From positions 10,771-74,770 of the forward strand of contig UQOW01000007.1 in the NCBI GenBank assembly GCA_900542805.1: a stretch of DNA of 64,000 nucleotides, given 5' to 3'. Under the pieces are notes generated by a model, which did not search any database, was not told the DNA's origin, and was given only the letters and a program-made list of their open reading frames with translations. Position 1 is the stretch's first letter, and each line of letters opens with the position of its first letter. Made by a program: the position numbers and the translations under genes. The DNA is from an uncultured Sutterella sp. GTDB lineage: Bacteria; Pseudomonadota; Gammaproteobacteria; Burkholderiales; Burkholderiaceae_F. Of the stretch, positions 1 to 52,528 are shown piece after piece.

Positions 1-656
1 TTTCATATTCTCGCACATACACCAAAGGCCGAATCACGATGTTGGTCTTGTCGTCACTACGCAGAATCGGCGGCATCGCTTTGATGCGTCCGCCGTAAAA
101 TAAATTAAGCAGCAGCGTGGAAACCACATCGTCCATTTGATGGCCGAGTGCAATTTTCGTGCAACCCGTTTCGCGGGCAACACGATACAAAATACCGCGA
201 CGCAAGCGAGCGCAGAGCGAGCAGATGTTTTTTTTCGTCGGAATCAGACGCTCGATAATCGCATGTGTATCCTGCGATTCGATGTGATAGGGAACACCGA
301 CAGCCTTAAGAAAATTTTCGATTATCTGCGCATCCGATCCCGGAATGTGTTGGTCGACGTGTACGGCAAGAAGGTCGAACTTTACCGGAGCTCTTTTTTG
401 TAATTTCATGAGCGTTTCCAGGAGGACATAACTATCCTTGCCGCCGCTCATGGCAACGAGAATCTTGTCTCCGTCTTCAATCATGTCGTAATCGGAAATC
501 GCTTGTGCCGTCAAGCGCACAATGCGTTTTTCCAATTTGCGAACCGAGACGGACGCGTGTGTGTGAACGCCGGGAGCAATCTCGATGGATTTTTTTTCAT
601 CTCGGTCGTTTCTCGGCGTCTTGACAGGAACAATCCGTATGGGCATTTCTGTCATA
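1..656 (-). CDS. ttcA: tRNA 2-thiocytidine biosynthesis protein TtcA (PP-loop ATPase); N-terminal about 218 aa, C-terminus runs off the window start
   Basis: Reverse translation from the ATG at 656 gives [14 protein letters not shown]...[28 protein letters not shown]. The SGGKDS PP-loop and the CxxC pair are typical of TtcA. The ORF was not in the track because there is no in-window stop. Confidence 0.8.
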
Positions 657-2123: not shown

Positions 2124-5100
2124 CTACGCTTCCTTTCTCTGTAAGGATTGTACTGGGTGCTTGGCAAAGAATGTTTTCAGAGCAACACCGGTAGCCGAGG
2201 GTACTTCGGAGACGGCAAGCGGCGTGCCTTGTGCAACGATTTGACCACCGCCTTCGCCTCCCTCCGGGCCTAGGTCGATGACGTAATCGGCTTCGGCAAT
2301 TAAATCCAAATTGTGTTCGATAACGAGGACGGTGTTCCCGGCATCGGTCAATGCTTGCAGTACATGAATGAGCTTTTGCACATCGGCCATGTGTAGTCCC
2401 ACCGTCGGCTCGTCGAGGATGTAAAGCGTCCGAATCCGCTTATTGGTCCGCCGGGATGTTTTGGCTTTTGCGAGTTCGAAAACCAGTTTAATGCGCTGGG
2501 CTTCTCCCCCGGAAAGCGTCGTCGAAGGTTGCCCGAGTTTTAAGTATCCTAAGCCCACGGATTGCATCATGCGTAGGCCCTCGGCCACTTTGGTGTTCTT
2601 TTCAAATAGGGGTAAGGCTTCGTCGACACTCATTTGTAAGATGTCGCCGATGGATTTGCCGTGCCACAGGACCGTTAGTGTTTCTTCGTCAAAGCGCTTT
2701 CCGCCGCATGTCGGGCAGGTCATGGTCACATCCGGCAGGAAATTCATCTCGACCATGACTTCGCCGCGTCCGCTGCAAGTCGGACACCGTCCGTCCTCAG
2801 TGTTAAAGGAAAAGCGTGAGAGCGTCCAGCCGTGTTCTTTGGCGGTGTTCGTGCCTGCAAAAAGCTCGCGAATTTGTGAGAAGAAGCCCACGTAGGTCGC
2901 CGGGCACGAACTCGGAGTTTTCCCGATGGGGGTCTGGTCCACTTCCAGAACGCGGTCAACGGCATCCCAACAGGCAATCGCCTTACACCCGAAGTATGAG
3001 ACAGGATGCTCTCTCGGTGTTTTGCTGAGGCGCATTTTTAGGAGCGGTAATAGGACATCACGAGCCAAGGTGGATTTTCCGGAGCCGGAAACGCCTGTGA
3101 GTGCCACGAGTTTTCCGAGCGGAATATTAACGGTGACATTTTTCAGATTGTGCTTTACTGCTCCGCTAATTTGCATAAACACATCGCTCTTTCGAATCGG
3201 GTGACGCACTTTTCCCGAATGCGGCATCGGATTTTTCAGGCATTGCCCCGTAATACTTTCCGGGGTGGCCGTGATATCGGCCAGTGTCCCTTCGCAGACA
3301 AGAGCCCCGCCCATACTACCTGCTCCCGGACCGATATCGACGATGTGTTCGGCATGTCGAATCATGTCCTCGTCGTGTTCGACGACAATGACGGTATTCC
3401 CCTTGTTTTTTAAGGCAATCAGTCCGTCGATTAAGCGGGCGTTGTCGCGAGCGTGGAGCCCGATGGTCGGCTCGTCTAACACGTAACAGACCCCCTGAAG
3501 GCTGTTTCCGATTTGGGAGGCCAAGCGGATGCGCTGAGCTTCACCGCCCGATAGTGTCGGGGCTCCGCGATTCAGCGACAGATACCCGAGTCCGACTTCG
3601 TGCAGAAAACGAAGGCGCGTGAGGACTTCTTGAACGGCGCCTTGTCCGATGGCTTTTTCGCGGCCGGCAAGACGCATCCGGGAAAAGAACGTTAAGCAAT
3701 CGTCGACGCTCATCGAGCAGATTTGGCCGATGTTGTGTCCCCGGAAAACAAAGGACAGAGCGGTTTTGTTAAGGCGCAGTCCCTGGCAAGTCGGGCAGGG
3801 CTCTTCGTGACCGTTGAACTGTCCGGTTCCTGCACAGGTCGGGCACCAGCCTATGGGGCTGTTGTAGGAAAAAAGTCGCGGATCAGGTTCGGGAATTTCA
3901 ATCAAACAATCCGGACACATGCGCTTGGTTGTTAAATGCCGGGTTCCGGCACAGGATTCTTCAATCCCGCCGTCGGCGTAGCGCCCCCATCGGACGGACA
4001 CCAATCCTTTCCCGTAAAGAAAAGCACGGGAAAGGGCGCGGCGTAGTAGCGATTCGTTTTCTGGGGTGGCAATCAGGGTTTGGATGGCAAGGTCCACTGA
4101 CGCATTGTCAGAAAAACTGAGCCGGTCAAAATTTTGTATGTCCGCCCATGTCCCGTCGTAGCAGAAACGGGAGCCTCCCGCCTCTCGTATGAGTTTTTTC
4201 ATCGTCGATGGATAAGCCGGTTTTTCCGGACTCGACAGGGAGATGGTCAGAGAAACGCGATGTCCTTTGTAGGTATTAAGGATTTCCCGACAAATCGCTT
4301 CTTCGGTTTCCTTTATGACGGCTTCACCGCATTTCGGGCAATGCGGCGTACCGAGTTTGGTGAAAAGAAGGCGCAGATAGGGATGAATTCCGGTCATCGT
4401 GCCGACGGTCGACTTCAGGCCGCCGCGACTCGTGCGCTGTTCGATGGCTACGGTCGGGGCAATCCCGATAATCTGCTCGACATCGGGTTTGGTGGGCGGC
4501 TGCACGAGGGAGCGTGCATAGGCGTTTAAGCTTTCCAGGTACCGGCGCTGTCCTTCGGAGAAAATAATGCCGAAGGCCAGAGTGGATTTTCCGGAACCGG
4601 AAACGCCCGTGACGACCGTCAGTTTTTTCTTCGGAATAACGACATTTAAATCTTTGAGATTGTGTTCGCGAGCCCCGAAAATGCCCATGTCGCCGGATTT
4701 AGCTTTTCGCCAAACCGATTGCAGGGAGCGCCCCATGGCCGGCGGGGCTACAACACGACTCGTGGTGACGGATAGGTCGGCCATTGAAGCGCTCGGATCT
4801 TGAAATGCTTTTCGGTAGGCAGCAAGGGCCTTAGCCGTGTAGGTTGTTTTACGCGTGAGTCCGTCTGGGGTTCCGGCGGCAACGAGTTGTCCGCCCTTAT
4901 CTCCGCCGTCCGGACCCAAATCGATAACCCAGTCACTGGCGTTGATGACATCCAAATTGTGTTCAATCAGGATGACGGTTGCGCCGCCATCGACAAGACG
5001 GCGTAAGGACGAAAGGAGTTTGGTGATGTCATCGAAATGCAGTCCCGTTGTTGGTTCATCGAGAACGAAAACGTGGCCGGCCACCGATCGGAGTGAATTG

Positions 5101-7715
5101 GCTCCGGCCAAGGTCTCGGCAAGCTTTAGACGCTGCGACTCGCCGCCCGAAAGCGTCGGGAGCGGTTGTCCGAGTCGGATGTAATCCAGACCGACGTCTT
5201 TTAGGGCGTTGAGACGGTTACAGATGTCTCGGTGATTCTTAAAGTACTCCAAGGCCTGTGAGACGGTCATATCCAAGACATCGGCAATCGATACGTCGTG
5301 TTGACCGTCCAGGTTAATGGTTACCTCTAGAACTTCCGGACGGTAGCGTTTCCCGTTGCAGTTCGGACACTTCAGATAAAGGTCGCTTAAAAACTGCATT
5401 TCGACGTGCTCGAATCCCGTGCCCTGACAGGTCGGACATTGTCCGAGTGCGGAGTTAAAACTAAAGTAGCCGGCGCTGTAATTGTTAGCACGCGCTTTCG
5501 GGGTGGCTGCAAAAATCTTTCGAATGGTGTCGAAGGCATCGATATAAAGGACCGGAGTCGACCGCTTCGTGGCCGAAACGGCACTCTGATTGATTAAGTG
5601 AATGTCTCGGAGGTTTTCGCATCCGAAAACTTTCGCATCGGGAACGGAGGAAACGACCTTCCCGAAATGCCGTTGCAAGAGAGGCACGAGGGTATCGATG
5701 ATGAGCGAGGATTTTCCCGATCCGGAAACCCCGGTGACGGTTGTCAGGTGGCCGATAGGAAAACGAACCGTGACGTTGCGTAGGTTGTGCTCGCAGGCAT
5801 CGGCCACTTCAAGCCACCGAGTTTGAGTGGTCGGAGTTTGACGCGTCAGCTCGGCATCGGGACGCCGCCGTCCGCTCAAATATGCTCCCGTGAGCGTGTC
5901 GGAATGACAGAGTCCTTCCGGTGTCCCGTCAAAGACGATTTGACCGCCTTTTTCACCGGACCCCGGTCCCATATCGATGATGCGGTCGGCAGCGAGCATC
6001 ACTTGCGGATCGTGTTCGACGACAACGAGGGTGTTGCCGGCATCGCGAAGACGTCGCAAGATTCCGTTGACACGGTCCATGTCGCGCGGATGTAAGCCGA
6101 CTGACGGCTCGTCGAGAACAAAGAGCGTGTCGACAAGGTTCGTTCCGAGGGCTGTGGTTAGGTTGACGCGTTGCACTTCACCGCCTGAGAGCGTGCGGCT
6201 TTGTCGATCGAGCGTGAGATATCCGACACCGACATCCGTTAGATAATTGAGGCGAGTTAATGCCTGTTCGAGCACAAGACGCCCCGGTTCATCGAGGACT
6301 TCTTCCCGAATAACTTGCAAGAAGGCAATGAGCGACGTAATCGGCAGGAGCATCAAGTCGTGTAGTGTCAGTCCGGGAATCGAATCGATGACCTTGCGGA
6401 TTCCCGGAGCATCGTTCGGGATAAATCGTGAGCGACCGGCAAGAGCGACATCGGCTGCGGCTCGGCTTCCGATACGCCACAAGAGGGCATCGGGTTTTAG
6501 ACGGGCACCTCCGCAGGACGGACACGTGATATAGGTCCGATAGTGCATCAAAAGCATGCGGGCCGTAAAGGTGTACTTAGCTTTATCCGCAATATAAGCA
6601 AAAAAACGCCGGATTCCGTACCACAGATGTCGGTTTCCCGAGCGCCAGTTTGCGTCACCGTTCCAAACCCAGTGTTTTTGCTCTTCGGTCAGATGGCAAT
6701 ACGGAATATCCGTCGGAATGCCGGCTCTTTGAGCGCAGTCCATCAGTTCGTCATAGCAATCTGCGTAAGCGCTGCCTTTCCCCCAAGGTTTGATGCAGCG
6801 TTCGCTTAGGGTTTTGTTCGCATCGGGAATCACGAGAGCTTCGTCGATATCGATGGTGCGCCCGAATCCGTGGCACACGGGGCAAGCCCCGAGCGGCGAG
6901 TTAAAGCTGAAGGTCGAATTCGTTGCATCAGCATAGGCAATGTCGCAGGCAGCGCACTTAAGGCCTTCGGCATACGGCCAAAGCGCTTCTTGACCGTCGT
7001 CGCTAAGGACGTGGACGAGAAACTTTCCGGCAAACGCGCCTTTGCCGCTTTTAAGAGCTGTCTGCACGGCTTCGAGGCCGCGAGAAAGATCGGTTTTGGA
7101 GACACGGAATCGATCGGCCACGACGGAAAGAATCGTCCCGTCGGGTGTTTTGCGCTCGGCGTGGATTCGTGTAAAGCCTCGGGCAGCAAGACCGTTAACG
7201 GCAAGCTCGCAGTCAAAATCTTTCGGGATCAGAACGTCAAATGTGATGACAAGCCGAGGGTCGGAAGCCGCGGTTGCCCGGGAGCAAATGTCCGCCCACA
7301 TGTCCATCGGCGTCATGCGACGCACGGGTTGTCCGCACTGTTTGCAAAATAGGTGAGCTTCCTTTTCAAACAGAAGCTTGAGGTAATCATTCAGTTCTGT
7401 CATCGTCCCGACGGTCGAGCGCGACGTACGGATACTGTTACTTTGATTGATGGCAATCGCAGGCGGAACGCCTTCAATGCTGTCGACATCGGGCTTGTCA
7501 CACTTGTCGAGGAATTGACGCGCGTAGGAACTAAACGTTTCCACATACAGGCGTTGTCCTTCGCTATAAAGCGTGTCGAAGGCAAGAGAACTCTTGCCCG
7601 ATCCGGAAGGTCCGGTAATGACGGTCCACGTATTCGTCTTAATGTCCAGATTAATATTTTTTAAATTGTTTTGTCTGGCACCGCGAATGCGGATTTTTTC
7701 AGAAACTTTTGTCAT
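2124..7715 (-). CDS. tandem-duplicated UvrA-like ABC ATPase (two UvrA units fused, four nucleotide-binding cassettes, 1863 aa)
   Basis: Four Walker A motifs: [61 protein letters not shown]. Four LSGGE signature motifs. Eight Cys-pair signatures: in the first half CKQC, CAAC, CPVC and CPSC; in the second half CPKC, CPDC, CPTC and CPTC. The second unit begins near residue 930. Confidence 0.85.
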
Positions 7716-10323: not shown

Positions 10324-10399
<76 letters not shown>

Positions 10400-10407
10400 A
10401 ATTTAAG

Positions 10408-10483
10408 GTCCCTATCGTCTAGAGGCCTAGGACACAACCCTTTCACGGTTGGTACAGCGGTTCGAATCCGCTTAGGGACGCCA
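10408..10483 (+). tRNA. tRNA-Glu (anticodon TTC)
   Basis: GTCCCTATCGTCTAGAGGCCTAGGACA…CCTTTCACGG…GGTTCGAATCC…GGGACGCCA. Near-identical to canonical bacterial tRNA-Glu(UUC). Confidence 0.9.
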
Positions 10484-23627: not shown

Positions 23628-24362
23628 TCAGTGCGACAAAATCTGCGACAGGAACTTTTGGGCGCGCTCCGAGCGCGGGGCGTTGAAAAATTCGACCTTC
23701 GGAACGTTTTCCAGAATTTCTCCGTGATCGACGAAAATCACGCGGTCGGCCACTTTCTTGGCAAAGCCCATTTCGTGTGTGACGACCATCATGGTCATGC
23801 CGTCACGCGCTAGTTGCACCATCACGTCCAAGACTTCGTTAATCATTTCCGGATCGAGGGCCGACGTCGGTTCGTCAAAGAGCATGCAAATCGGATCCAT
23901 AGCCAGTGCACGAGCAATGGCCACACGCTGCTGCTGACCGCCCGAGAGTTGGCCGGGGAATTTTTCAGCTTGGCTTAAAAGCCCGACACGCTCCAAAAGC
24001 TTTAAACCGCGTTCCGTGGCTTCGTCACGCCCGCGCTTTAAGACTTTCATTTGTGCCAAACGCAAGTTGTCGATAATCGAAAGATGCGGGAAAAGCTCGA
24101 AGTGCTGGAAAACCATGCCGACGTGGCTACGCAATTTGGCTAAATCAGTCTTCGGGTCCCCGACACTGACGCTGTTGACAAGGATTTCTCCTTCCTGAAA
24201 CGGCTCTAAGGCGTTGACGGTCTTAATCAACGTGGATTTGCCCGATCCCGAAGGGCCGCAGACAACAACGACTTCTCCCTTTTCAACGGAGACGGAACAG
24301 TTTTTTAATACCTGAAAATCTCCGTACCACTTGCTTACATTGCGGATCTCAATCATTGCCAT
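23628..24362 (-). CDS. polar amino-acid ABC transporter ATP-binding protein (GlnQ-like), no cognate permease adjacent
   Basis: MIEIRNVSKWYGDFQVLK…GPSGSGKST…LSGGQQQRVAIARALAM…LFDEPTSALDPE. Confidence 0.85.
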   Translation of the reverse strand: MAMIEIRNVSKWYGDFQVLKNCSVSVEKGEVVVVCGPSGSGKSTLIKTVNALEPFQEGEILVNSVSVGDPKTDLAKLRSHVGMVFQHFELFPHLSIIDNLRLAQMKVLKRGRDEATERGLKLLERVGLLSQAEKFPGQLSGGQQQRVAIARALAMDPICMLFDEPTSALDPEMINEVLDVMVQLARDGMTMMVVTHEMGFAKKVADRVIFVDHGEILENVPKVEFFNAPRSERAQKFLSQILSH

Positions 24363-24633
24363 GGTAAAAATACCCTCGGTAAATCGCTAATTAATCCGAA
24401 ACGGATGCTTCGGAAACAGAGTAGGCGGGAACGATAGCACGGTCTGGCTTTAAGGTACTACTCGCGGAGCGGTTTGTTTTTTTTCGACCGGATAACGAAG
24501 AAAGAATAGGACGCACCGAAACGGTGCATACGCGCAGTCTCGGTGCGTTGCAGCGGCTTGCGTGAGCCGTTGTTGCATCATTGTCTCAGCAATTTATCGT
24601 AAAAAAGCGCTGAAAACCTCGGATTTATTGAGC

Positions 24634-24650
24634 TGGCACGAAAATTGCTT
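24634..24650 (+). promoter_or_regulatory. sigma-54 (RpoN) -24/-12 promoter upstream of the TAXI-TRAP operon
   Basis: cTGGCACGaaaaTTGCTt is a perfect match to TGGCACG-N4-TTGCW, about 70 nt upstream of the TAXI gene start. Confidence 0.65.
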
Positions 24651-24720
24651 TATAAGAAGGTAAGGGCATTACCAAATGCCTCATACGAAAATCCAAAAGG
24701 TATTTAGTCGGAGAAAAAGC

Positions 24721-25686
24721 ATGTTTAAGAAACTTCTTCCTTTCGTTATGGCCGGTGCTCTGGCCTTAGGCGGTGTTGCGATGGCCAAGGATACGTTCGT
24801 GACTATCGGTACGGGTGGTATCACGGGTGTTTATTACGCTACGGGCGGCGCCTTAGCCAAGATCGTTAACGCCAAGCGCTCGACCTATCACGTCCGCGCC
24901 AGTGTGGAAAGCACGGGCGGTAGCAAGTTCAACATCAATGCGGTTTCCACAGGTGATTTGGACTTCGGTATTGCTCAGGCCGATACGCAGTACATGGCTT
25001 ACTTCGGAAAGGATGTTTGGGAAGGTAAACCCGTTAAGAAGTTGCGTGCAGTTTTTGCCTTGGCTCCGGAAGCCGTGACTTTCGTTGCCGCCGAAGATAG
25101 CGGTATTCGTTCCATTAATGATGTCAAAGGCAAGATTATTAATCTCGGTGATGCCGGATCGGGTAACCGCATCAATGCCATGGATATTTTCAAGAATTTC
25201 GGCATTGTTCCGGGCAAGGATTTCCGTGACGAGAAGTTAAAGCCGGCGGATGCGCCGCGTGTTTTGCAGGACGGTCGTATCGACGGGTTCTTCTACACGG
25301 TCGGTCATCCGAACGGCAACATCAAGGAAGCAACGGCCGGAAAGCGTGTCTGCCGCATTGTCCCGATTACAGGTTTGGATAAACTCTTAAAGGGTGCGCC
25401 GTATTACTCGATGACGACGATTGATATGAGTCAATACCCCGATGCGGCTAACAGTAAAGACAAGGTCGAGACGCTCGGCATGCTTGCCACGCTTGTGACA
25501 TCCTCGGATGTTCCCGATGATGTAGTCTATGCCGTCACCAAGGAAGTGATGGAAAACCTCGATAAGCTCAGAAAGTTGCATCCGGCGCTGGAGAGCATCA
25601 CCGTAAAGAGCATGCTCGAAGGGCTTTCGGCTCCGATTCATAACGGTGCCATGCGCTACTACAAAGAAGTCGGTTTGATTAAGTAA
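24721..25686 (+). CDS. TRAP transporter solute receptor, TAXI family
   Basis: Signal peptide MFKKLLPFVMAGALALGGVAMA followed by KDTFVTIGTGGITGVYYATGGALAKIVN, the TAXI hallmark. Confidence 0.85.
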   Translation: MFKKLLPFVMAGALALGGVAMAKDTFVTIGTGGITGVYYATGGALAKIVNAKRSTYHVRASVESTGGSKFNINAVSTGDLDFGIAQADTQYMAYFGKDVWEGKPVKKLRAVFALAPEAVTFVAAEDSGIRSINDVKGKIINLGDAGSGNRINAMDIFKNFGIVPGKDFRDEKLKPADAPRVLQDGRIDGFFYTVGHPNGNIKEATAGKRVCRIVPITGLDKLLKGAPYYSMTTIDMSQYPDAANSKDKVETLGMLATLVTSSDVPDDVVYAVTKEVMENLDKLRKLHPALESITVKSMLEGLSAPIHNGAMRYYKEVGLIK

Positions 25687-25707
25687 GTTCTGTTTTTAAT
25701 TAAAGTC

Positions 25708-25737
25708 AATCAATGGGCCGTTCCCGATCCTTCGGGA
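25708..25737 (+). other. intercistronic RNA stem-loop between the receptor and permease genes
   Basis: GGGCCGTTCCCGA-TCCT-TCGGGAATGGCCC forms a 13-bp stem with one G·U. Confidence 0.55.
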
Positions 25738-25793
25738 ATGGCCCGTACATATCAAGAAAAAAGCAAGAAGCGCCAAGTCAATAGGATTGAGAA

Positions 25794-27908
25794 ATGAGCG
25801 ACACAGAAAAAATCGTATTGCCCGACGCGGGCCCAAAAAAGAAAAAAGACGATGACATCATCGGAGAATATCGGCAGGAGGTCACCGAAGGCGATCATGG
25901 TCTGGAAGGGGACAAGTCGGGCATTTCGACGGCTATTACGTTTATCGTGGCGTTATCCTGGTCGCTTTTCCAAATGTCCACGGCCAGTTGGCTTTTGCTC
26001 GATTCCTTGTACGTCAAAGCTTTCCACTTGGCTTTTGCTATGGCCCTGGTGTTTTTGAACATTCCGGCCATTAAAGGCGCCAAGCGCTACCGTTGGGACT
26101 TGCGCATCCTTCTGGCGATGAACCGCGTGACGCTTTTTGACTGGGCCGTGGGCCTAGTTGCCGTCGCAGCCGCTTTGTACGTCTTCTTCGATTACGAAGG
26201 CATTGCCGACAGAGCCGGGCAACCCAATGCGCGCGATATCGTCATCGGTTTGATTTTGCTCGTGACGCTTCTGGAAGCCACACGGCGCGTTTCGGGACCT
26301 GCGCTTCCGATTATCAGTCTCTTATTTGTCGCGTATGTCTTCTTCGGACCGTATCTGCCGGATCTATTTGCCTTTAAGGGTGTAAGCCTCTCGCGTTTTA
26401 TCTCGCAGATTACGATGGATACACAGGGCATTTACGGTGTTCCGCTGCATGTGTCGGCAACGGTCGTGTTCCTCTTCGTGCTTTTCGGAACGATGCTTGA
26501 CCGGGCCGGCGGCGGGTCGTTCTTTACACGTATTGCCGTTTCCGGACTCGGACAGTACCGAGGCGGTGCGGCAAAAGCAGCCGTTGCCGGGTCGGCTCTT
26601 TCCGGCATGGTTTCCGGTTCCTCCATTGCCAATGTCGTGACGACCGGTACCTTCACGATTCCGCTCATGAAGCGCATCGGGTACACGGGAACCAAGGCAG
26701 CGGCCATTGAAGTGGCTTCGTCAGTTAACGGACAACTTGCGCCTCCCGTAATGGGTGCGGCAGCCTTCATTATTGCCGAGTACGTTAACGTGCCGTACGT
26801 GGAAGTAGCCAAAGCCGCTGCGATTCCGGCGTTTGCCGCCTACATGGGTTTAATTTGGATTACGCATATCGAGGCCTGCAAGCTCGGACTTAAGGGTCTG
26901 CCGAAAAACGAACTGCCGCATTTTTGGGTTGAGATGAAAAAGGGAATGCACTTTTTGCTCCCTCTTCTCATGCTCCTTTACGAATTGATTTTCTTGCAAC
27001 ACTCGGCCGAACTCAGTGTCCTTCGCGCCATCCTCGTTTTGGGCGTCATCATGCTCTTGCAGCCGGTTGCCGTGGCGCGTGTGCGCGGCACACCCTTGTT
27101 GCCGGCACTTCGGACCGGGTTTAAGACACTAGTTGACTCGTTAGCGGCCGGTGCCAATAACATGGCCGGTGTGGCTCTTGCCACGGCCTCGGCAGGCATC
27201 ATTGTCGGGTGCGTCTCCATGGGTTTGGGGCAACAAATCACAAGCCTCGTGGAAGTGCTCTCGATGGGCAACATCTTCCTACTGATTTTAATTACGGCGC
27301 TCGCCAGTCTTTTGCTCGGCATGGGATTGCCGACGACGGCAAACTACATCATCATGGCCTCTTTGACGGCTCCGGTTCTTGTAGATCTGGCAACCGGCAT
27401 GAACGTTCACGGTGTGGATATTGCGATTACGCTGATGGGGGCGCATCTGTTTTGCCTGTATTTCGGCGTGATGGCCGATGCGACGCCGCCTGTGGGCTTG
27501 GCGGCGTATGCCGGCGCGGCCATTGCCCGTGTCGAACCGATTCGGGTCGGCTGGCAGGCGTTTATCTACGATATCCGTACCTTCATCATCCCGGTGGTGT
27601 TCCTATTTAATGCAGACTTGCTCTTAGACGGCATTGATAGTTGGATGGTCGGATTCTTTCTGTTTGCTATGACCAGTTTGGGAATGATGTCTCTGAGTAG
27701 CGCGTTCGAGGGCTGGTTCATTCGGGAGATGAACCTAGTCGAGCGCAGCATTTTGCTTTGTGCTTCGGCTGTGCTGATGTTCCCGTTCCTCGTGACGGGT
27801 GCGTTCTTGCCCTATGAGATGCGGTGGTGGGGTTATACGGTCGGTTTAGCTCTCCTCGGTCTCGTGTACCTGTGGCAACGCCTGCGGTATCATGAAACAC
27901 TCTTTTAA
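25794..27908 (+). CDS. TRAP transporter fused 4TM/12TM permease (TAXI-associated)
   Basis: 704 aa polytopic protein with a DctM-like core, immediately downstream of the TAXI receptor. Confidence 0.8.
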   Translation: MSDTEKIVLPDAGPKKKKDDDIIGEYRQEVTEGDHGLEGDKSGISTAITFIVALSWSLFQMSTASWLLLDSLYVKAFHLAFAMALVFLNIPAIKGAKRYRWDLRILLAMNRVTLFDWAVGLVAVAAALYVFFDYEGIADRAGQPNARDIVIGLILLVTLLEATRRVSGPALPIISLLFVAYVFFGPYLPDLFAFKGVSLSRFISQITMDTQGIYGVPLHVSATVVFLFVLFGTMLDRAGGGSFFTRIAVSGLGQYRGGAAKAAVAGSALSGMVSGSSIANVVTTGTFTIPLMKRIGYTGTKAAAIEVASSVNGQLAPPVMGAAAFIIAEYVNVPYVEVAKAAAIPAFAAYMGLIWITHIEACKLGLKGLPKNELPHFWVEMKKGMHFLLPLLMLLYELIFLQHSAELSVLRAILVLGVIMLLQPVAVARVRGTPLLPALRTGFKTLVDSLAAGANNMAGVALATASAGIIVGCVSMGLGQQITSLVEVLSMGNIFLLILITALASLLLGMGLPTTANYIIMASLTAPVLVDLATGMNVHGVDIAITLMGAHLFCLYFGVMADATPPVGLAAYAGAAIARVEPIRVGWQAFIYDIRTFIIPVVFLFNADLLLDGIDSWMVGFFLFAMTSLGMMSLSSAFEGWFIREMNLVERSILLCASAVLMFPFLVTGAFLPYEMRWWGYTVGLALLGLVYLWQRLRYHETLF

Positions 27909-28093
27909 TTGATTCTGTTTCCCATTGTCGACACGCCCGAGAAATCGGGCGTGTTGCGTATCGGATGAGACGATCCGTTTCCTGACTTCTCGGTTTTCGT
28001 CAAGTCTGAAAGCGAGTTCCTGTGAAATCCATCGGATACAAGAATTTGCGCCTCCTGTTTAGGGAGGCTCAAGGGAATTCGGACGTAAAAACT

Positions 28094-29545
28094 CTACTTT
28101 TTATCCGGTGTGGTTTGCGACGTCTTTTTGGCTTTCTTCGCGGCAAGGACATCGGCGTGTGTGGTCACGGGTTTCCCGACTAAAAAGTTCACGGCCTGCG
28201 TGAGAGGAAAATCGCTCTTGTCGCCGAACGTGTAACGTAAGGACGGCATCATTTCGTTTTCTTCCTCTTTCAGAGCATCTTTTTCGGAGGATTTTGTCTC
28301 TGAAGTTTCCGCGTCAATGTGTCCGGAAAGATCGGCCTCGCGAATCGCAAAGGACGGGTAGTTTCCCTCCGGTGTGTCGTCAACGAGGATGTCAGGCGTG
28401 ATGCCCCGGGCTTGAATCGAGCGCCCGAGCGGCGTGTAGTAGCGCGCCGTAGTCATCTTAAGTCCGAGCGTTTCTCCGGTTTTGATAGGAAGCGGAATAA
28501 TCGTTTGGACGCTTCCCTTTCCGAAGGTGCGTGTTCCCATCAATGTGGCACGCTTGTGGTCCTGTAAGGCGCCCGAGACAATTTCGGAAGCCGAAGCCGA
28601 GGCACCGTTCACGAGAACCACAATCGGCACGGTTTTGATGAGGAGAGGAAGCCCCTTTAACACGTCGGAAGTATCGTCGCCTACGGCATAGTCTTGATAG
28701 GAGGCTTTGAAGACGCGCTCGGAGGCTTTGTCGCGTCCCTTGGTTGAGACCACGGGAACTCCGTCTTTTAAAAAGGCGGCGGAAACACCGACTGCGGCAT
28801 TCAGTAGACCTCCCGGATTGTTGCGCAAATCGAGCACCAGGCCTTTTAAGTCTTTATCACGCGACAATTGCGTCAAGGCCTTTGCGACGTCAGCCGTGGT
28901 TTTTCCCTGAAACTGCGAGATACGGATGTACCCGACATGATGGTCAAGGGCTTTGGACTTGACCGACTGAATCTTGATAATGGCCCGTACCAGGTGAATG
29001 ACTACGGGTTTGATCTCCCCTTTGCGAGCAATCGTCAGCGTGATGGGGGTGCCGGGTTTACCGCGCATCAGCTTGACGTTTTCATCGAGTGAGCGGTCGG
29101 CACTGACTTTGTCATCGATTTTGATGATGATATCTCCGGCACGCACACCCGCACGGGCCGCCGGGGTGTCGTCGATGGGACTGACGACGCGAACGCCTTG
29201 GACGTCTTTGGTTATTTCGATACCCAGACCGCCGAACTCACCGGCCGTGCTTTCCTGCAGGTCTTTGTAGCCCTTCGCATCTAAAAACGAAGAGTGCGGG
29301 TCAAGCCCGGATACCATGCCTTTAATGGCGTTTTCGATGAGTTTTTTGTCGCTCACTTCATCAACGTAATAATTCTTGATACCGCCGAAAATCTCCGCAA
29401 ACAAGCGAACGTCATCGACCGGAAGCGGCGGTTCCTTTACGGAGGCCGAACATACAAGAGGCAATGCCAAGAGCGTCAGAATGACGGCGGGACGAGGTAC
29501 AAGCGTCATGATTTCTTTCAGTGAGTTAATTAATGCGCTAGCCAT
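28094..29545 (-). CDS. ctpA: carboxy-terminal processing protease (S41 family, Prc/CtpA)
   Basis: Signal peptide, a PDZ region, then GLVLDLRNNPGGLL and the S41 catalytic region. Confidence 0.85.
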   Translation of the reverse strand: MASALINSLKEIMTLVPRPAVILTLLALPLVCSASVKEPPLPVDDVRLFAEIFGGIKNYYVDEVSDKKLIENAIKGMVSGLDPHSSFLDAKGYKDLQESTAGEFGGLGIEITKDVQGVRVVSPIDDTPAARAGVRAGDIIIKIDDKVSADRSLDENVKLMRGKPGTPITLTIARKGEIKPVVIHLVRAIIKIQSVKSKALDHHVGYIRISQFQGKTTADVAKALTQLSRDKDLKGLVLDLRNNPGGLLNAAVGVSAAFLKDGVPVVSTKGRDKASERVFKASYQDYAVGDDTSDVLKGLPLLIKTVPIVVLVNGASASASEIVSGALQDHKRATLMGTRTFGKGSVQTIIPLPIKTGETLGLKMTTARYYTPLGRSIQARGITPDILVDDTPEGNYPSFAIREADLSGHIDAETSETKSSEKDALKEEENEMMPSLRYTFGDKSDFPLTQAVNFLVGKPVTTHADVLAAKKAKKTSQTTPDKK

Positions 29546-33675: not shown

Positions 33676-34911
33676 TTACTCCGACTTCTTTCTGTTTATG
33701 TCGTGGTCGACCATCGCGGCAACGCACGAATCGGACCAGACGTTTAGCGTGGTTTCAATCATATCGATGACGGCGTAAAAGGGCAGAATCACGCCCATCA
33801 GGCCGATCGGAACGTTCATACTTGCCAGAAGGCTGGCCGACAAGAAGAAGCACCCCATCGGAACACCGGCATTTCCCACGGCTGCAAGTGTCGAAATCAG
33901 AATCCAGGCCAGAACGGTTCCGAACGTAATGTCCAGACCGGCGTTTTGCATCAAATAGATGACGGTCACGAGGATAAAGGCCGCACATCCGTTCATGTTA
34001 ATCGTCGTGCAAATCGGCAAAACGAAACGGACGACTTTGGGCGAAACCTGCAGATTGTTCTCAGCGCTTTGCATCGTCACAGGCAAAGTTGCGGCCGAGG
34101 ACTTGGAAAAGAAGGCAAGAGTCAAAGCCGGGAACATGGCCCGCGCCACTTTAATCGGATTTAAACCGCGTAAAAGAAGCATCAAGGGCAAGATGATGAT
34201 CATCTGCACGAAATTGGCCGTCAGAACCGTTGCAAAGTACGAACCCAAACCGCCGACATTGACGCCGGCGTTAATTTCCGACATCAGCTGCGAAACGAAG
34301 CCGAAGATACCGATCGGCAAAAACAAAATAATCCAACTGATGAGCTTGAAAAGCGTCGCTTGCAGACCGTCGAAGAAATTTAAAACCGTCGTCTTCCCGG
34401 CAGACTCATCGGGCAAGTGCGATAAGGCCAAACCGAAGGCTGCGGCAATCAGGAGAACGGCAAGAACGTTTCCGGAAAGGAAGGGGGCAATGACGTTGTT
34501 GGGAATGGCCGAGAGCAGGTACTCCATGTAAGAGTGTTGCACAATGCCTTCGGGAGCCACGGCCGCTGCTGTCGTAACGTTTGCCGGTGCAAACATAAAA
34601 AAGAGAGCGGCAGCAAGGGAAGCCGCCAAAATCGTCGTCAGTAACGTGTAAAAAATCGTGTGGCGGAAAATACTGGCCGAGTCCTTGGCGCGAGAGGCTC
34701 TTCCGAGTGTTGCAATAATGGAAACGGCAATCACGGGAATGGCAATAAATTTAAAAAGTCGCACGAAGATATTAGCAATGAGGTCGCCCCCTTGTACCGT
34801 CAGGTCCGTGCCGACGTACCCGTTAAGAACGCCCAAAACGATGGCGATTACGTAAAAAAGGGCCATCTTTTTTTGGTTTGCAGAAAAGCCTGTAGTTGCA
34901 CCCGTTGACAT
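33676..34911 (-). CDS. dicarboxylate/amino acid:cation symporter family transporter, SstT-like (serine/threonine)
   Basis: 411 aa. PIGIFGFVSQ…, SSAATLPV and TINMNGCA resemble the DAACS/SstT helical-hairpin motifs. Confidence 0.65.
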   Translation of the reverse strand: MSTGATTGFSANQKKMALFYVIAIVLGVLNGYVGTDLTVQGGDLIANIFVRLFKFIAIPVIAVSIIATLGRASRAKDSASIFRHTIFYTLLTTILAASLAAALFFMFAPANVTTAAAVAPEGIVQHSYMEYLLSAIPNNVIAPFLSGNVLAVLLIAAAFGLALSHLPDESAGKTTVLNFFDGLQATLFKLISWIILFLPIGIFGFVSQLMSEINAGVNVGGLGSYFATVLTANFVQMIIILPLMLLLRGLNPIKVARAMFPALTLAFFSKSSAATLPVTMQSAENNLQVSPKVVRFVLPICTTINMNGCAAFILVTVIYLMQNAGLDITFGTVLAWILISTLAAVGNAGVPMGCFFLSASLLASMNVPIGLMGVILPFYAVIDMIETTLNVWSDSCVAAMVDHDINRKKSE

Positions 34912-44830: not shown

Positions 44831-45313
44831 TTACTCCTTTCCCGGTGTTGCTTCAGGGGGGTTCCAAGCAGCAATGACGTCCAAAGCTTGTTTCGCGGAG
44901 GGCGCTTTCATCAGGGATTCTCGGACTTCTTTGTCGCGCAGAAATTCGGCCACATCCGAAAGAATGGCCAGATAGGCGTCCGGGTTGCTTTCCGGAATGG
45001 CCACGGCAAAAAACAGTTGTGCCGTCGTCTGCCCCGGTCCGTCGTAATCAATCGGCTGTTTGGTTCTCACCAGGCAGAGCCCGGGATCGACAATTCCGTT
45101 AATACGGGCATGGGGAATGCCGGCGCGACACCCTAAGCCCGTCGGTCCGAGTTTTTCGCGTGCAATCAGGGCATCGAAAACGCTTTGCGCCGGGACTCCG
45201 GAAGAGACGGACAAAATTCGGGAAACTTCTTCGAAAAGGCGTTTTCGGCTCAAGACATCTAAGTCAAGCAGGATGTTTTCATTCGGATTTAATAACGGAG
45301 CAATGTGATTCAT
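44831..45313 (-). CDS. ptsN: PTS IIA-like nitrogen regulatory protein (EIIA-Ntr)
   Basis: 160 aa EIIA fructose/mannitol-type fold. Sits between rpoN and rapZ as in the canonical locus. Confidence 0.8.
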   Translation of the reverse strand: MNHIAPLLNPNENILLDLDVLSRKRLFEEVSRILSVSSGVPAQSVFDALIAREKLGPTGLGCRAGIPHARINGIVDPGLCLVRTKQPIDYDGPGQTTAQLFFAVAIPESNPDAYLAILSDVAEFLRDKEVRESLMKAPSAKQALDVIAAWNPPEATPGKE

Positions 45314-45392: not shown

Positions 45393-46805
45393 CTACGAGC
45401 AAAGGCGCAGTCGTTCGTTTTTCGGGGGGATTTTGTCCATTTCCCGATATTTGGCAACGGTGCGACGTGCGATGCGGATTCCCTGCTCGGCAAGTTGTTG
45501 TGTCAGTTGGGCGTCGCTCATCGGGCAGGCCGGATTTTCCTCGGAAATCAGCTGGCGAATGCGTTCCCGAACGACAGTGCTCGAGAGTAATTCGGGAGCT
45601 TCGTCCGAGGCAACGGAGCCGGAGAAAAAGTGCTTTAACGGGAAAAAGCCGAAGGGTGTTTGGATATATTTCCCGGCTACGGCACGACTGACTGTGGACG
45701 TGGAAATGCCGAGATTTTCGGCAACCTCCTGCATTCCGAGCGGCACGAGTGCTTGCGGACCTTCGACAAAAAAGCGGAATTGTCGCTTAAAAAGCGCGCG
45801 TCCGACTAGGAGCAGTGTTTTCTTGCGTCGCATCAGAGCATTGATAAAAAGGCGCGCCTTTTGGGCATAAGGCTCCATCGCTTCGCGTTCGGGGGCATCT
45901 TTCGGCCCTTTGTGCAAAAGGGCATAGGTGGGAGAGTCAAAAGCAATGCGCTCGGAGGCATCGTCCTGAAAAATAAGCGTCAGGGCCCCGTCCTTTTTTT
46001 CAACGGTAAAGTCTGGAAAAACGGTATGGTCCGTCAGACCGACAAACTGTGAACACGGATGCGGGTCTAAAGACCTTAAGATGCAAAGCGCGGCTCGAAC
46101 ATCATTTAGGTCTCGGTGAAGCCGCCGGGCAATCGCGGCCTTGTCGCCTTTAAGCAACAGGTTCGGGCATTCCTTGAGAATTGAATCGGCAAGAGCTCGG
46201 GTTGCCGTTAATTCATCGTTCGGAGCGGCTTTCAGTTGCAACGAAAGCACTTCAAGCGCGGAGGTGGCACCGACCCCCGTAGGATCGAGGCTTTGTAGCG
46301 TTTGTAGGGCTTCTTGCCAGGCTTTTTCGGAGGCTGAAATCGGACAGGTGTTTGCCATCGATTCCAAAGTCTCTTCGAAGAGCCCGTCTTCATTGAGGTT
46401 CCCGGCAAGCCACTGAACAAGGTCTTTTTTATCTTCGGGAATGGTAAGAAGACGAATTTGCCTTGTCAGGTGCTCCAAAAGCGTCGTCGGGTAGCTTAAG
46501 AAATCCGTCGGGTCGACAGTCGAGTCTTCCGGGGGAGTGTTTTTCCAAGTAATAAGCGACGTTGTTCCCGGAAAGTCAGCCGATACTCCCACCGGTTCGT
46601 CAAACGGAGTTTGTATCGAAACGCTCTCTTGCGTCTGATCGACATCTTTTGTGAGCAAAAACGGGTTTTCTTCGATTTGGCGCGCAATTTCGGCATTCAC
46701 ATCTTCGCGACTTAGCGTCAAGAGCTTGGCTGTTTCCAGAAGCAACGGCTTCGGAAGTTGCTTTTGTTTCCCGGCAACGTTGATATGTAAAGACGATACC
46801 GCCAT
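45393..46805 (-). CDS. rpoN: RNA polymerase sigma-54 factor
   Basis: C-terminal RpoN box ARRTVAKYRE plus an HTH. 470 aa. Lies downstream of lptB. Confidence 0.9.
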   Translation of the reverse strand: MAVSSLHINVAGKQKQLPKPLLLETAKLLTLSREDVNAEIARQIEENPFLLTKDVDQTQESVSIQTPFDEPVGVSADFPGTTSLITWKNTPPEDSTVDPTDFLSYPTTLLEHLTRQIRLLTIPEDKKDLVQWLAGNLNEDGLFEETLESMANTCPISASEKAWQEALQTLQSLDPTGVGATSALEVLSLQLKAAPNDELTATRALADSILKECPNLLLKGDKAAIARRLHRDLNDVRAALCILRSLDPHPCSQFVGLTDHTVFPDFTVEKKDGALTLIFQDDASERIAFDSPTYALLHKGPKDAPEREAMEPYAQKARLFINALMRRKKTLLLVGRALFKRQFRFFVEGPQALVPLGMQEVAENLGISTSTVSRAVAGKYIQTPFGFFPLKHFFSGSVASDEAPELLSSTVVRERIRQLISEENPACPMSDAQLTQQLAEQGIRIARRTVAKYREMDKIPPKNERLRLCS

Positions 46806-50366: not shown

Positions 50367-50977
50367 TGTAGCGAAAGGGCGACTTATCTCGGAGTCCGCC
50401 TTGGGAAAGATAAAGGAAAAACTGTGCAGCTTCCCCGGCTTTAATCGTCAGTGAAAAAACACGAAGGACGGGGTTTTCGTCATACCCGAAAGTCACATGG
50501 GAAAAACGATGTCGCTTTCTCGATTGATCTCTTGGCAGCCAGACCATCGCTGACGGCGGTTTGTCCTGGCGGAGAATATCTGCAAGGCCCTGAGCCAGTG
50601 GCCTTTCGAACCAGGATGGCAGCGCCAGCCCGATGTTGTTGATGAGGCCGGAAATCGTGACATGGAAAAGCGGCTTACTCTCGGCAAAAAACAGGAGCGA
50701 ATCGTCTGGGGATTAAAAGAGAGAGCCGAGGTTCCGGGAAAGGCTGTCCCTTAAACGGAGGTCTTAAACAGCATAACGAATTTGTGATTTTGGGCCGAGC
50801 CCCGGCACATGAACGGTGTGACGCGTCCGGCTCGAAAGTAGTAAAAATTGTCAGGTCTTTGCTCCGGGGTTACAAAGAGCGTGGCGTCCGAAACCCCGAA
50901 GTTTCAACCAATCGGATGCATTGCCTGTTGCTCGCAAAACTCTTCGATGCGTTGTATCGAAGAAACAAAAAAAGTCA

Positions 50978-51019
50978 TTTTTCGCGCGAAAAGCGATTCT
51001 TGTAACAAATTGTTGCAAA
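50978..51019 (+). promoter_or_regulatory. two adjacent palindromic operator-like sites upstream of the membrane-protein/amidohydrolase cluster
   Basis: TTTTCGCGCGAAAA is a perfect 14-bp palindrome. TTGTAACAAATTGTTGCAA is a 19-bp near-perfect inverted repeat overlapping a -35-like TTGCAA. A TATAAG -10-like box lies about 15 nt further on. Confidence 0.45.
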
Positions 51020-51127
51020 CGAAAGGCAAACCTCTATAAGATACAAAACAGATGGCGACCTGTTGCGTCTTCGGCAGTGTTCGTCGCTGTTTTTTTATTA
51101 GTTTTACTTTTTAACGGAAACTCCATC

Positions 51128-51910
51128 ATGCAAGCACTCGGTCGTTTCAAGCTCCACATTCTGGCGCTTTTAGTTGTAGTGGCCGCTGATGCCATCGGAA
51201 TTCAAAAATTCGGCATTGTTGTTCTGTTGCCGCTTTTGTATGCCATGGTGTTCGGCGCAATCCTTTCGATTCCTCGCTTAAAAATCCTTTCGATGGCAGA
51301 ACAGGAACGCGCAGCGCACTTTATGCCGATTGCGATGCTCTTCCTAGTGGCTTACTTGGGGTTGGGTATCGGACCGAATCTGGTTAAATTATTCGATTCG
51401 GGCCTGGCTCTGATTATGCAGGAATTCGGGCATTTCTTCGGCACCATGATTTTGGGTCTGCCGATGGCGCTTCTGTTGAAAATGGGGCGCGAGGCTATCG
51501 GTGCCTGCTACTCGATTGACCGTGAGCCGAACATTGCCATTATTGCCGAGAAGTACGGCATTGACTCTCCGGAAGGACGCGGTGTGATGGGTATGTACAT
51601 CTGCGGCACGATTTTCGGCGCAGCGTGGATTTCCGTGCTTGTCGGTGTGATTGCTCAGCTCGGATGGTTCCATCCGCATGCGCTGGCGATGGGTGCGGGT
51701 ATCGGCTCGGCCTCGATGATGGCTGCCGGTGTTGCGTCCATTGTGGCGGTGTATCCCGATCAGGCTGACGTTGTTCTGGCCTATGCAGGTGCCGCGAATC
51801 TGATGACCACGATTCTCGGAATTTATTTTGCTCTGTTCGTTTCCTTGCCCGTGATGGTCTGGGTGTACGAAAAGATTACCGGCGATCGCCGTGAACCTGC
51901 CGCGAAGTAA
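51128..51910 (+). CDS. polytopic membrane protein, DUF3100-like
   Basis: 260 aa, about 7–8 TM segments (MQALGRFKLHILALLVVVAADAIG…). First gene of a three-gene cluster ending in an M20D amidohydrolase. Confidence 0.6.
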   Translation: MQALGRFKLHILALLVVVAADAIGIQKFGIVVLLPLLYAMVFGAILSIPRLKILSMAEQERAAHFMPIAMLFLVAYLGLGIGPNLVKLFDSGLALIMQEFGHFFGTMILGLPMALLLKMGREAIGACYSIDREPNIAIIAEKYGIDSPEGRGVMGMYICGTIFGAAWISVLVGVIAQLGWFHPHALAMGAGIGSASMMAAGVASIVAVYPDQADVVLAYAGAANLMTTILGIYFALFVSLPVMVWVYEKITGDRREPAAK

Positions 51911-51920
51911 GGAGAAAAAC

Positions 51921-52376
51921 ATGATTGCAAAACTTAAGGACATTGGTTTTATTCTTCTTGTCACGGCGATTTTCTCAGTGATTGCTAACTGTGTCGGTTT
52001 TAAAGGGGATATTGCCTCAGGCTCGTTGGGCGCTCTCGTTTTATTGATTATTACGTTCATCGGATGCGTCATTGCGAATTTGCCGGGGTTTTCCAAACTT
52101 CCGACGGTCTTTTGGGTTTCTTTGGTGGCGGTGATTGTTTCCATTCCGGGCGTTCCCGGTAGCGAATGGATTGTTGCCCAAGTCAAGCACGTTAACTTGC
52201 TGGCCACGACAACGCCGATTCTGGCCTATGCCGGCTTGTGTGTCGGTAAGGATTTGGAAGCCTTTAAGGCGCTTTCCTGGAAGATTATTCCGGTGGCGCT
52301 TTGCGTTTCCGCCGGTAGCTTCATTTGTGCGACAATCCTTGCGGAAATCATCCTGCGGTTCGAACACGTGTTCTGA
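51921..52376 (+). CDS. small hydrophobic membrane protein (4 TM) co-transcribed with the DUF3100-like gene
   Basis: MIAKLKDIGFILLVTAIFSVIAN… 11 nt downstream of the preceding stop. Confidence 0.6.
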   Translation: MIAKLKDIGFILLVTAIFSVIANCVGFKGDIASGSLGALVLLIITFIGCVIANLPGFSKLPTVFWVSLVAVIVSIPGVPGSEWIVAQVKHVNLLATTTPILAYAGLCVGKDLEAFKALSWKIIPVALCVSAGSFICATILAEIILRFEHVF

Positions 52377-52528
52377 TACACGGCTTTTCCGAGCGGTGCA
52401 GAAAATCCTGTGCGGGTTTTCTGCATCACTCGGAATTACTCAGTGCCCGACCGGCAGTTTTTTGCCGCATCGGGTCGGGCGAAGTCTTCCTGCGGGGGCT
52501 TCGCTTTTTTATCAATTCGGGGGTTGTC

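Follow-up and report, generated by a model that had tools for sequence, protein, structure and literature searches.

The window analyzed here, a stretch of 64,000 nucleotides (nt) from an uncultured Sutterella sp. (contig UQOW01000007.1, positions 10,771 to 74,770), contains at positions 24721 to 27908 an operon that encodes an uptake system of the tripartite ATP-independent periplasmic (TRAP) transporter type, i.e., a periplasmic binding protein of the TAXI family together with a fused membrane component. As judged from sequence, this TAXI-TRAP amino-acid importer of the Sutterellaceae appears to belong to the sigma-54/NtrC-type nitrogen response. We assign a probability of roughly 65% to the reading in which a sigma-54 promoter and an NtrC-type activator make the operon a nitrogen-limitation-induced system for the uptake of a glutamate-type substrate. 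This reading draws on the promoter and enhancer motifs, on their conservation and co-occurrence in related loci, on the gene families present, and on the ligand residues of the binding protein, from which the activator, its signal, the substrate, and the effect of an intercistronic hairpin were deduced. The coordinates of the individual features are compiled in Table 1.

Sigma-54 promoter upstream of the TAXI gene

The promoter sequence TGGCACGAAAATTGCT is the single match to the pattern TGGCACGNNNNTTGCW (TGGCACG-N4-TTGCW) on both strands of the window, where 0.03 matches were expected; at least one match occurred in 3 of 100 dinucleotide-preserving shuffles of the window. When one mismatch was tolerated, only one further site was added (149 to 164, minus strand), and this site lacks the essential GG. 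Within TGGCACGAAAATTGCT, the GG (24635 to 24636) and GC (24647 to 24648) dinucleotides are exactly 10 bp apart, and the position of the latter predicts a transcription start at about 24660. A first-pass annotation of this DNA had reported an exact -24/-12 match at 24633 to 24650 (cTGGCACGaaaaTTGCTt), located about 70 nt before the receptor gene and preceded by about 270 nt of intergenic space; the letters are as reported there (wider context at 24630 to 24653, gagcTGGCACGaaaaTTGCTttat), 71 nt separate the end of the motif from the ATG at 24721, and the intergenic space from 24363 to 24633 amounts to 271 nt. The distance of 71 nt applies because the gene starts at this ATG and not at the in-frame ATG at 24676. 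The longer open reading frame (ORF) beginning at the latter was rejected, since that ATG is not conserved, whereas the ATG at 24721 and the GGAG in front of it are conserved in the orthologues; public gene calls likewise give a 321-residue product. By a simple scan, no sigma-70-like promoter was found between 24200 and 28200, compared with 3.0 expected.

Related loci were collected in a scan using one genome per species, which yielded 33 loci with a gene for a relative of the binding protein. Upstream sequence is present in 32 of them, the exception being the truncated locus L029, and, together with the window, 28 sequences bear the promoter. The closest relatives are uncultured Sutterella (96% and 94% identity of the binding protein), followed by Duodenibacillus-like bins (84 to 89%) and then by Parasutterella, Turicimonas, and other Sutterellaceae (74 to 80%), with one Mailhella (71%) and one spirochaete (55%) as the outliers of the set; the exact binding protein was also found in many metagenome assemblies. 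A -24/-12 element precedes the orthologous gene in 27 of the 32 informative loci. In 25 of these it is a strict match, situated 86 to 209 nt before the orthologous ATG, and in the other two it is degenerate but keeps the GG and GC dinucleotides (TGGCACGATTTATGCA in L011 and AGGTACGATTCTTGCT in L013). The motif is missing from five loci, namely, three Sutterellaceae bins (L010, L014, and L027), the Mailhella locus, and the spirochaete locus. The N4 spacer differs among loci (GAAA, GGAA, GCTA, GGTT, GTCT, GCGT, and others), and the TGGCAYG and TTGCW blocks are fixed. The genera that keep the promoter are Sutterella, Duodenibacillus, Parasutterella, and Turicimonas, among them the cultivable Parasutterella excrementihominis YIT 11859 (L018) and Turicimonas muris YL45 (L022); the gene order lptF-lptG-ABC/TAXI-QM/S41-M23 is confined to the Sutterella/Duodenibacillus group, and in the other genera the neighbors are different but the promoter is kept. 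Nowhere else in the 395 kb made up by the window and the related loci does the strict motif occur. On these sequence comparisons, the -24/-12 motif is not a chance match, and the phylogenetic footprint supports the earlier claim that a genuine sigma-54 promoter serves the TAXI-TRAP operon.

Palindromic sites upstream of the promoter

Inverted repeats that could serve an enhancer-binding protein were looked for between 24363 and 24630, where the first-pass annotation had seen room for them, and two sites of the GCACC-N5-GGTGC type were found, which we refer to as upstream activating sequences UAS1 and UAS2. The core of UAS1 (GCACCGAAACGGTGC, 24513 to 24527) is a perfect GCACC-N5-GGTGC palindrome and the only exact match to GCACCNNNNNRGTGC (GCACC-N5-RGTGC) in the window, against 0.21 expected. 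UAS1 as a whole agrees at 14 of 17 positions with the NtrC enhancer consensus TGCACC(A/T)4TGGTGCA (PMC4987338, Table 1); the consensus is also given as TGCACCAnnnTGGTGCA (PMC8743547). The centers of UAS1 and UAS2 are 19 bp apart, and L001 and L002, to which the window is most closely related, have a second site with the same spacing. A minus-strand "terminator" called at 24529 to 24511 was rejected as such, being the palindromic enhancer site itself.

Sites of this type, with at most two mismatches to GCACC-N5-GGTGC and within 320 nt upstream, are present in all 28 promoter-bearing sequences, with one to four copies each, and 27 of the 28 have at least one copy with no more than one mismatch. 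The site centers lie at about -105 to -230, except for one distant two-mismatch match in L005, and several relatives have only one site with up to two mismatches. The remaining approximately 330 kb contains about 10 matches with at most one mismatch. Such palindromes are absent upstream of the gene in all five promoter-less loci; promoter and palindromes are thus present together and absent together, and have therefore been acquired or lost jointly. The family consensus, (T/C)GCACCAAAA(T/G)AGTGC(A/G), agrees with the published NtrC enhancer consensus.

Two other upstream elements were seen in the relatives. L010 and L014, which are ruminant Sutterellaceae bins without the promoter and the palindromes, share the sequence ttgcYtacaaaNctaRggtgttt upstream of the TAXI gene, and this different, shared element suggests that regulation has been replaced in that lineage. 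The loci of the Duodenibacillus group (L003 to L009 and L033) have in common the near-palindrome tttctaRgtagtactaactagRttt, located between enhancer and promoter about 45 to 75 nt before the -24 element. The window lacks this near-palindrome, which could be recognized by a second protein that binds or bends DNA.

Genes preceded by the composite pattern in metagenomes

As an independent test, metagenome contigs unrelated to this genome were scanned for the composite pattern GCACC-N5-RGTGC, followed after 74 to 104 nt by TGGCAYG-N4-TTGC. The scan gave at least 120 loci (L034 to L153), and the first ORF after each promoter was typed with Pfam; 107 ORFs are covered among the matches listed, to which the following counts of first ORFs refer. 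Glutamine synthetase (GlnA) is the first ORF in 26 of the 107, followed in frequency by Gcw_chp (PF09694; function unknown) in 11, NirB-type nitrite reductase in 6 to 7, an NrtA-like binding protein in 5, and PII in 3. In 14 of the loci listed, the promoter is followed farther downstream by a PII gene of the same orientation, and rarer first ORFs encode amidases, regulators of the NasT type, and binding proteins for urea or amino acids. No relative of the binding protein was present downstream of a matched promoter among the matches listed, and no flagellar or phage-shock family is among the 25 families listed. Since the composite pattern stands for the most part in front of nitrogen-assimilation genes (glnA, glnK-type genes, and genes for nitrite reductase and for the uptake of nitrate or urea), it marks the nitrogen (Ntr) regulon, which supports NtrC over another activator as the reader of the region 24512 to 24547.

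Search for the activator gene and rpoN

Pfam analysis of about 40 long ORFs of the window revealed no enhancer-binding protein, the activator signatures GAFTGA, Walker A, and ESELFGH were absent from all six frames of the window and the 33 related loci, and tblastn with E. coli NtrC gave no match in the same set. The earlier statement that no enhancer-binding protein is encoded within several kilobases hence extends to the whole 64-kb window and to about 330 kb of related loci, in none of which an activator gene was found within 6 kb of the operon. A PII gene near the operon was likewise not found in the window or the related loci. Among the papers listed in a literature search for sigma-54 or NtrC in these genera, none mentioned Sutterella or Parasutterella, and a search for a link of NtrC to TAXI transporters gave nothing relevant.

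The first-pass annotation had also pointed to rpoN in the same window. The gene is indeed present, but a special meaning of its location could not be upheld: it lies 20.7 kb from the operon, on the opposite strand, and within the canonical kdsD-lptC-lptA-lptB-rpoN-ptsN-rapZ cluster, so that the co-location with the promoter has no evident meaning. As a separate observation, the DNA-binding domain of RpoN is intact, and there is no hpf gene between rpoN and ptsN (44831 to 45313).

Likely substrate of the binding protein

The best solved relatives of the binding protein are 9OZ4 (2.4e-78) and VcGluP of Vibrio cholerae (8S4J; 2.7e-76). With the glutamate-specific VcGluP it shares about 50% identity and, in a HMMER alignment to 8S4J, the ligand residues Y45, S75, Q93, E125, and Y200. 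VcGluP has a high affinity for L-glutamate and a weaker one for glutamine and pyroglutamate, and the exchanges Y45A and Q93A reduced its affinity 213- and 990-fold, respectively (PMC11574862). Judging from the degree of identity and the ligand residues retained, the window protein probably binds a glutamate-like amino acid, which is the best guess for its ligand. Such a cargo would fit the proposed regulation, because the glutamate/aspartate (gltIJKL) and glutamine (glnHPQ) importers are targets of NtrC and sigma-54 in Salmonella (PMC4987338).

Hairpin between the receptor and permease genes

The spacer of 107 nt between the two genes has a predicted folding energy of -34.7 kcal/mol (z = -4.8), a value that was not reached by any of 200 shuffles. 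The strong 13-bp stem-loop noticed there in the first-pass annotation is real, constitutes the core (25715 to 25727 and 25732 to 25744) of a 15-bp stem, and has a conserved structure. Specifically, the consensus hairpin of the 11 closest sequences comprises 11 pairs, all of them intact. In two pairs both partners have changed in a compensatory manner (from U-A to C-G and from A-U to U-A), and in three pairs G-C is replaced by G-U. A G+C-rich hairpin is predicted at this place in almost all loci with a delimitable spacer, and in the distant loci it is formed by unrelated sequences. No U-tract follows the hairpin in the window (GUACAUAUCAAG; GUACAUAUC) or in the closest relatives. A canonical Rho-independent terminator was rejected for the window hairpin, which has no U-tract and was not called by a terminator scan, and a REP-like repeated element was rejected because the hairpin arm has no second copy in the window.

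Differential expression of receptor and permease by means of the hairpin is a reasonable assumption by analogy, well-known precedents for hairpin-based differential expression being the repetitive extragenic palindromic (REP) elements in malE-malF and hisJ-hisQ. The hairpin would probably raise the ratio of binding protein to permease, either because it shields the upstream mRNA from 3' exonucleases or because some of the transcripts end there. That it acts mainly in the latter way, as a partial terminator or attenuator that lowers permease transcription rather than stabilizing the upstream mRNA, is a possibility that we regard as tentative: a T-run follows the equivalent hairpin in L011, L015, and L028, whereas the stems of the window and its closest relatives have no such tract and the terminator scan was negative. 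Protection and termination would both lead to an excess of binding protein, and the two mechanisms are not mutually exclusive.

Proposed regulation and alternative explanations

In the reading that we favor, the operon would be transcribed most likely from the promoter at 24634 to 24649, starting at about 24660. RNA polymerase containing sigma-54, the product of rpoN (45393 to 46805), would bind to this promoter but need help to open it. An enhancer-binding protein of the NtrC type, whose gene would lie elsewhere in the genome, would bind to the sites near -140 and -121, oligomerize, loop to the promoter, and open it using ATP. A distant regulator and a specific signal had been expected from the outset; as the palindromes match the NtrC consensus, the former can be narrowed down to an NtrC-type activator, and the signal is therefore probably nitrogen status, most likely nitrogen limitation by analogy with the enteric glnHPQ and gltIJKL operons. 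The cargo would most likely be glutamate or a close relative, such as glutamine, and the operon would function as a nitrogen-scavenging amino-acid uptake system.

Several points weigh against this assignment. In the family, the right half-site most often reads AGTGC and not GGTGC, and other NtrC-family activators could share a similar specificity. The sites at E. coli glnAp2 are about 32 bp apart, compared with 19 bp from center to center in the window, and an IHF-like site between enhancer and promoter was not found, the best candidate having two mismatches. Since no activator gene lies within the window or the fetched loci, the presence of NtrC in this genome is assumed. Region I of RpoN, which interacts with activators, is divergent (PF00309, 19.7 bits, below the cutoff of 23.8). 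Finally, four contacts of VcGluP that are water mediated or involve the main chain are changed in the window protein (S40G, H123A, D157N, and M201T), which leaves room for a different amino acid or an organic acid as the substrate.

Some of these points would also suit a substrate-sensing paralogue of the NtrC family, similar to DctD, AauR, or MifR, that responds to external glutamate or dicarboxylate via its own sensor kinase, an alternative that we consider unlikely. Transporters of the TRAP type and those for acidic amino acids in other proteobacteria are often under the control of a two-component sigma-54 activator of their own (e.g., MifSR), and the departure of the AGTGC half-site from the NtrC consensus would be in line with such an activator. 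However, DctD and AauR sites differ from GCACC-N5-GGTGC, dedicated activators usually adjoin their targets, which does not apply to the 6-kb surroundings of the operon in the 33 loci or to the 64-kb window, and the composite pattern precedes nitrogen-assimilation genes, not dct-type genes, among the metagenome matches listed. Far less probable still is that the -24/-12 match is fortuitous or vestigial and that the operon is read from an unrecognized sigma-70 promoter. Shuffled windows do yield one exact match in 3% of cases, and the orthologous operon lacks the motif in the three Sutterellaceae loci L010, L014, and L027; yet the motif is kept in 27 loci of at least four genera while the flanking bases diverge, it always stands before the same gene and always together with enhancer palindromes, it is absent elsewhere in 395 kb, and the region has no sigma-70-like site where three were expected.

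Going beyond NtrC control as favored here, one may speculate that an NtrC-like protein is dedicated to the transporter, that the TAXI operon is among the very few targets that sigma-54 still has in these reduced gut Betaproteobacteria, and that the shared intergenic enhancer in the Sutterella/Duodenibacillus clade might also act on the divergently oriented gene for an orphan, unusually conserved GlnQ-like ATPase. We regard this combination as quite improbable; if true, rpoN would have been retained largely to control glutamate-type uptake.

Operon genes and neighboring features

The binding protein begins with a signal peptide of the usual kind (MFKKLLPFVMAGALALGGVAMA/KD), and its predicted mature part comprises residues 23 to 321. 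The permease gene comes directly after the binding-protein gene wherever the sequence of a locus reaches that far. The next gene in the window encodes an S41 protease (28094 to 29545) and is convergent, so the operon consists of two genes. The stem-loop behind the permease gene, whose function is predicted from the fold, likely marks the end of the operon; as it lacks a T-run, it is not a canonical intrinsic terminator. The predicted leader matched no Rfam family at the gathering threshold, and a riboswitch or other leader RNA was rejected, the sole Rfam matches in the whole window being two adjacent tRNA genes on the plus strand (10324 to 10396 and 10408 to 10480).

TABLE 1 Features of the TAXI-TRAP operon region and the rpoN gene in the window
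Feature	Coordinates	Strand	Description and basis
UAS1, CGCACCGAAACGGTGCA	24512-24528		Center at about -140 from predicted start; NtrC-site-like
UAS2, core GCGCAGTCTCGGTGC at 24532-24546	24531-24547		Center at about -121; right half-site perfect, left degenerate
Sigma-54 promoter, TGGCACGAAAATTGCT	24634-24649	+	Exact match to TGGCACG-N4-TTGCW
Predicted 5' leader, about 61 nt	24660-24720	+	Promoter geometry; ribosome binding site GGAG at 24710-24713
TAXI-family TRAP solute-binding protein, 321 aa	24721-25686	+	PF16868, 1.4e-81; TIGR02122, 296 bits (cutoff 84)
Intercistronic stem-loop, 15 bp including two G-U pairs, loop UCCU	25713-25746	+	Fold prediction
Fused TRAP (DctQ-DctM type) permease, 704 aa	25794-27908	+	PF06808, 6e-72; TIGR02123, 621 bits (cutoff 321)
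G+C-rich stem-loop, 10 bp, ACACGCCCGA-gaaa-TCGGGCGTGT	27931-27954		Sequence and fold; 23 nt after permease stop, between convergent genes
rpoN (sigma-54)	45393-46805	-	TIGR02395, 343 bits (cutoff 277); RpoN box ARRTVAKYR intact

Upstream of the operon, a divergent gene (23628 to 24362, minus strand) encodes an orphan GlnQ-like ABC ATPase for polar amino acids (NF007027, 304 bits, below the cutoff of 379), with no permease or binding-protein gene beside it. The ATPase is 92 to 99% identical at the protein level across L001 to L009 and L033, compared with only 69 to 94% for the adjacent LptF and LptG. Between its gene and the enhancer sites, at about 24425 to 24475, there is a conserved noncoding block, gatagcacggNctggc...aaggtactactcgcgg, that is common to the window and to L001, L002, and L007 and probably represents the ATPase gene's own promoter or leader. 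Further genes of the window related to the uptake or processing of amino acids encode a member of the sodium:dicarboxylate symporter family (33676 to 34911, minus strand) and a DUF3100 membrane protein (50921 to 51910, plus strand), the latter followed by an M20 amidohydrolase (52325 to 53836, plus strand); no sigma-54 motif was found at these three genes. At 2124 to 7715 (minus strand), the window encodes a protein of 1,863 residues that combines several ABC ATPase modules with UvrA interaction and DNA-binding domains and has about twice the normal length of UvrA.

Comparison with known systems

For a group of abundant but little-studied bacteria of the human and animal gut (Sutterella, Duodenibacillus, Parasutterella, and Turicimonas), the analysis provides a testable regulatory assignment, and it adds regulatory context to the poorly characterized TAXI subfamily, in which very few substrates and, to our knowledge, no regulators are established. 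As a mechanism, the proposed control is textbook and would not surprise a specialist, so the value of the assignment lies in annotation and physiology rather than in concept.

The enteric operons glnHPQ, gltIJKL, and argT-hisJQMP possess the same -24/-12 promoter and TGCACC-N5-GGTGCA-type sites about 100 to 140 bp upstream (PMC4987338). In these Ntr operons, the activator is also encoded elsewhere, and the product is a binding-protein-dependent importer for nitrogen sources of the glutamate/glutamine type. The Sutterella operon differs from them in encoding a secondary, ATP-independent TAXI-TRAP transporter instead of an ABC importer, in its gut Sutterellaceae host, and in that AGTGC is the commonest right half-site among its relatives. 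On the transporter side, VcGluP-VcGluQM (VC0430/VC0429) of V. cholerae has the same fused QM partner and the same key ligand residues, but the four secondary contacts differ, and the ligand assigned to the window protein is a prediction; the VcGluP paper makes no mention of NtrC, and "sigma" there refers to electron-density contour levels (PMC11574862).

The dctPQM operons of Rhodobacter and Pseudomonas, which are controlled by DctB/DctD, likewise combine a sigma-54 promoter and upstream enhancers with a TRAP transporter. They differ in that the transporter is of the DctP type and takes up C4-dicarboxylates, that the activator genes are usually adjacent, and that the enhancer sequence is different. 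As in malE-malF and hisJ-hisQ with their REP elements, a stable hairpin stands after the binding-protein gene and before the gene for a membrane component, a position that suits a system requiring its binding protein in excess; in contrast to REP elements, the hairpin is not repeated, its arm occurring once in the window. Taken together, the operon would represent an ordinary nitrogen-control design on a less usual type of transporter, and what is new is the presence of enhancer palindromes at every promoter-bearing locus.

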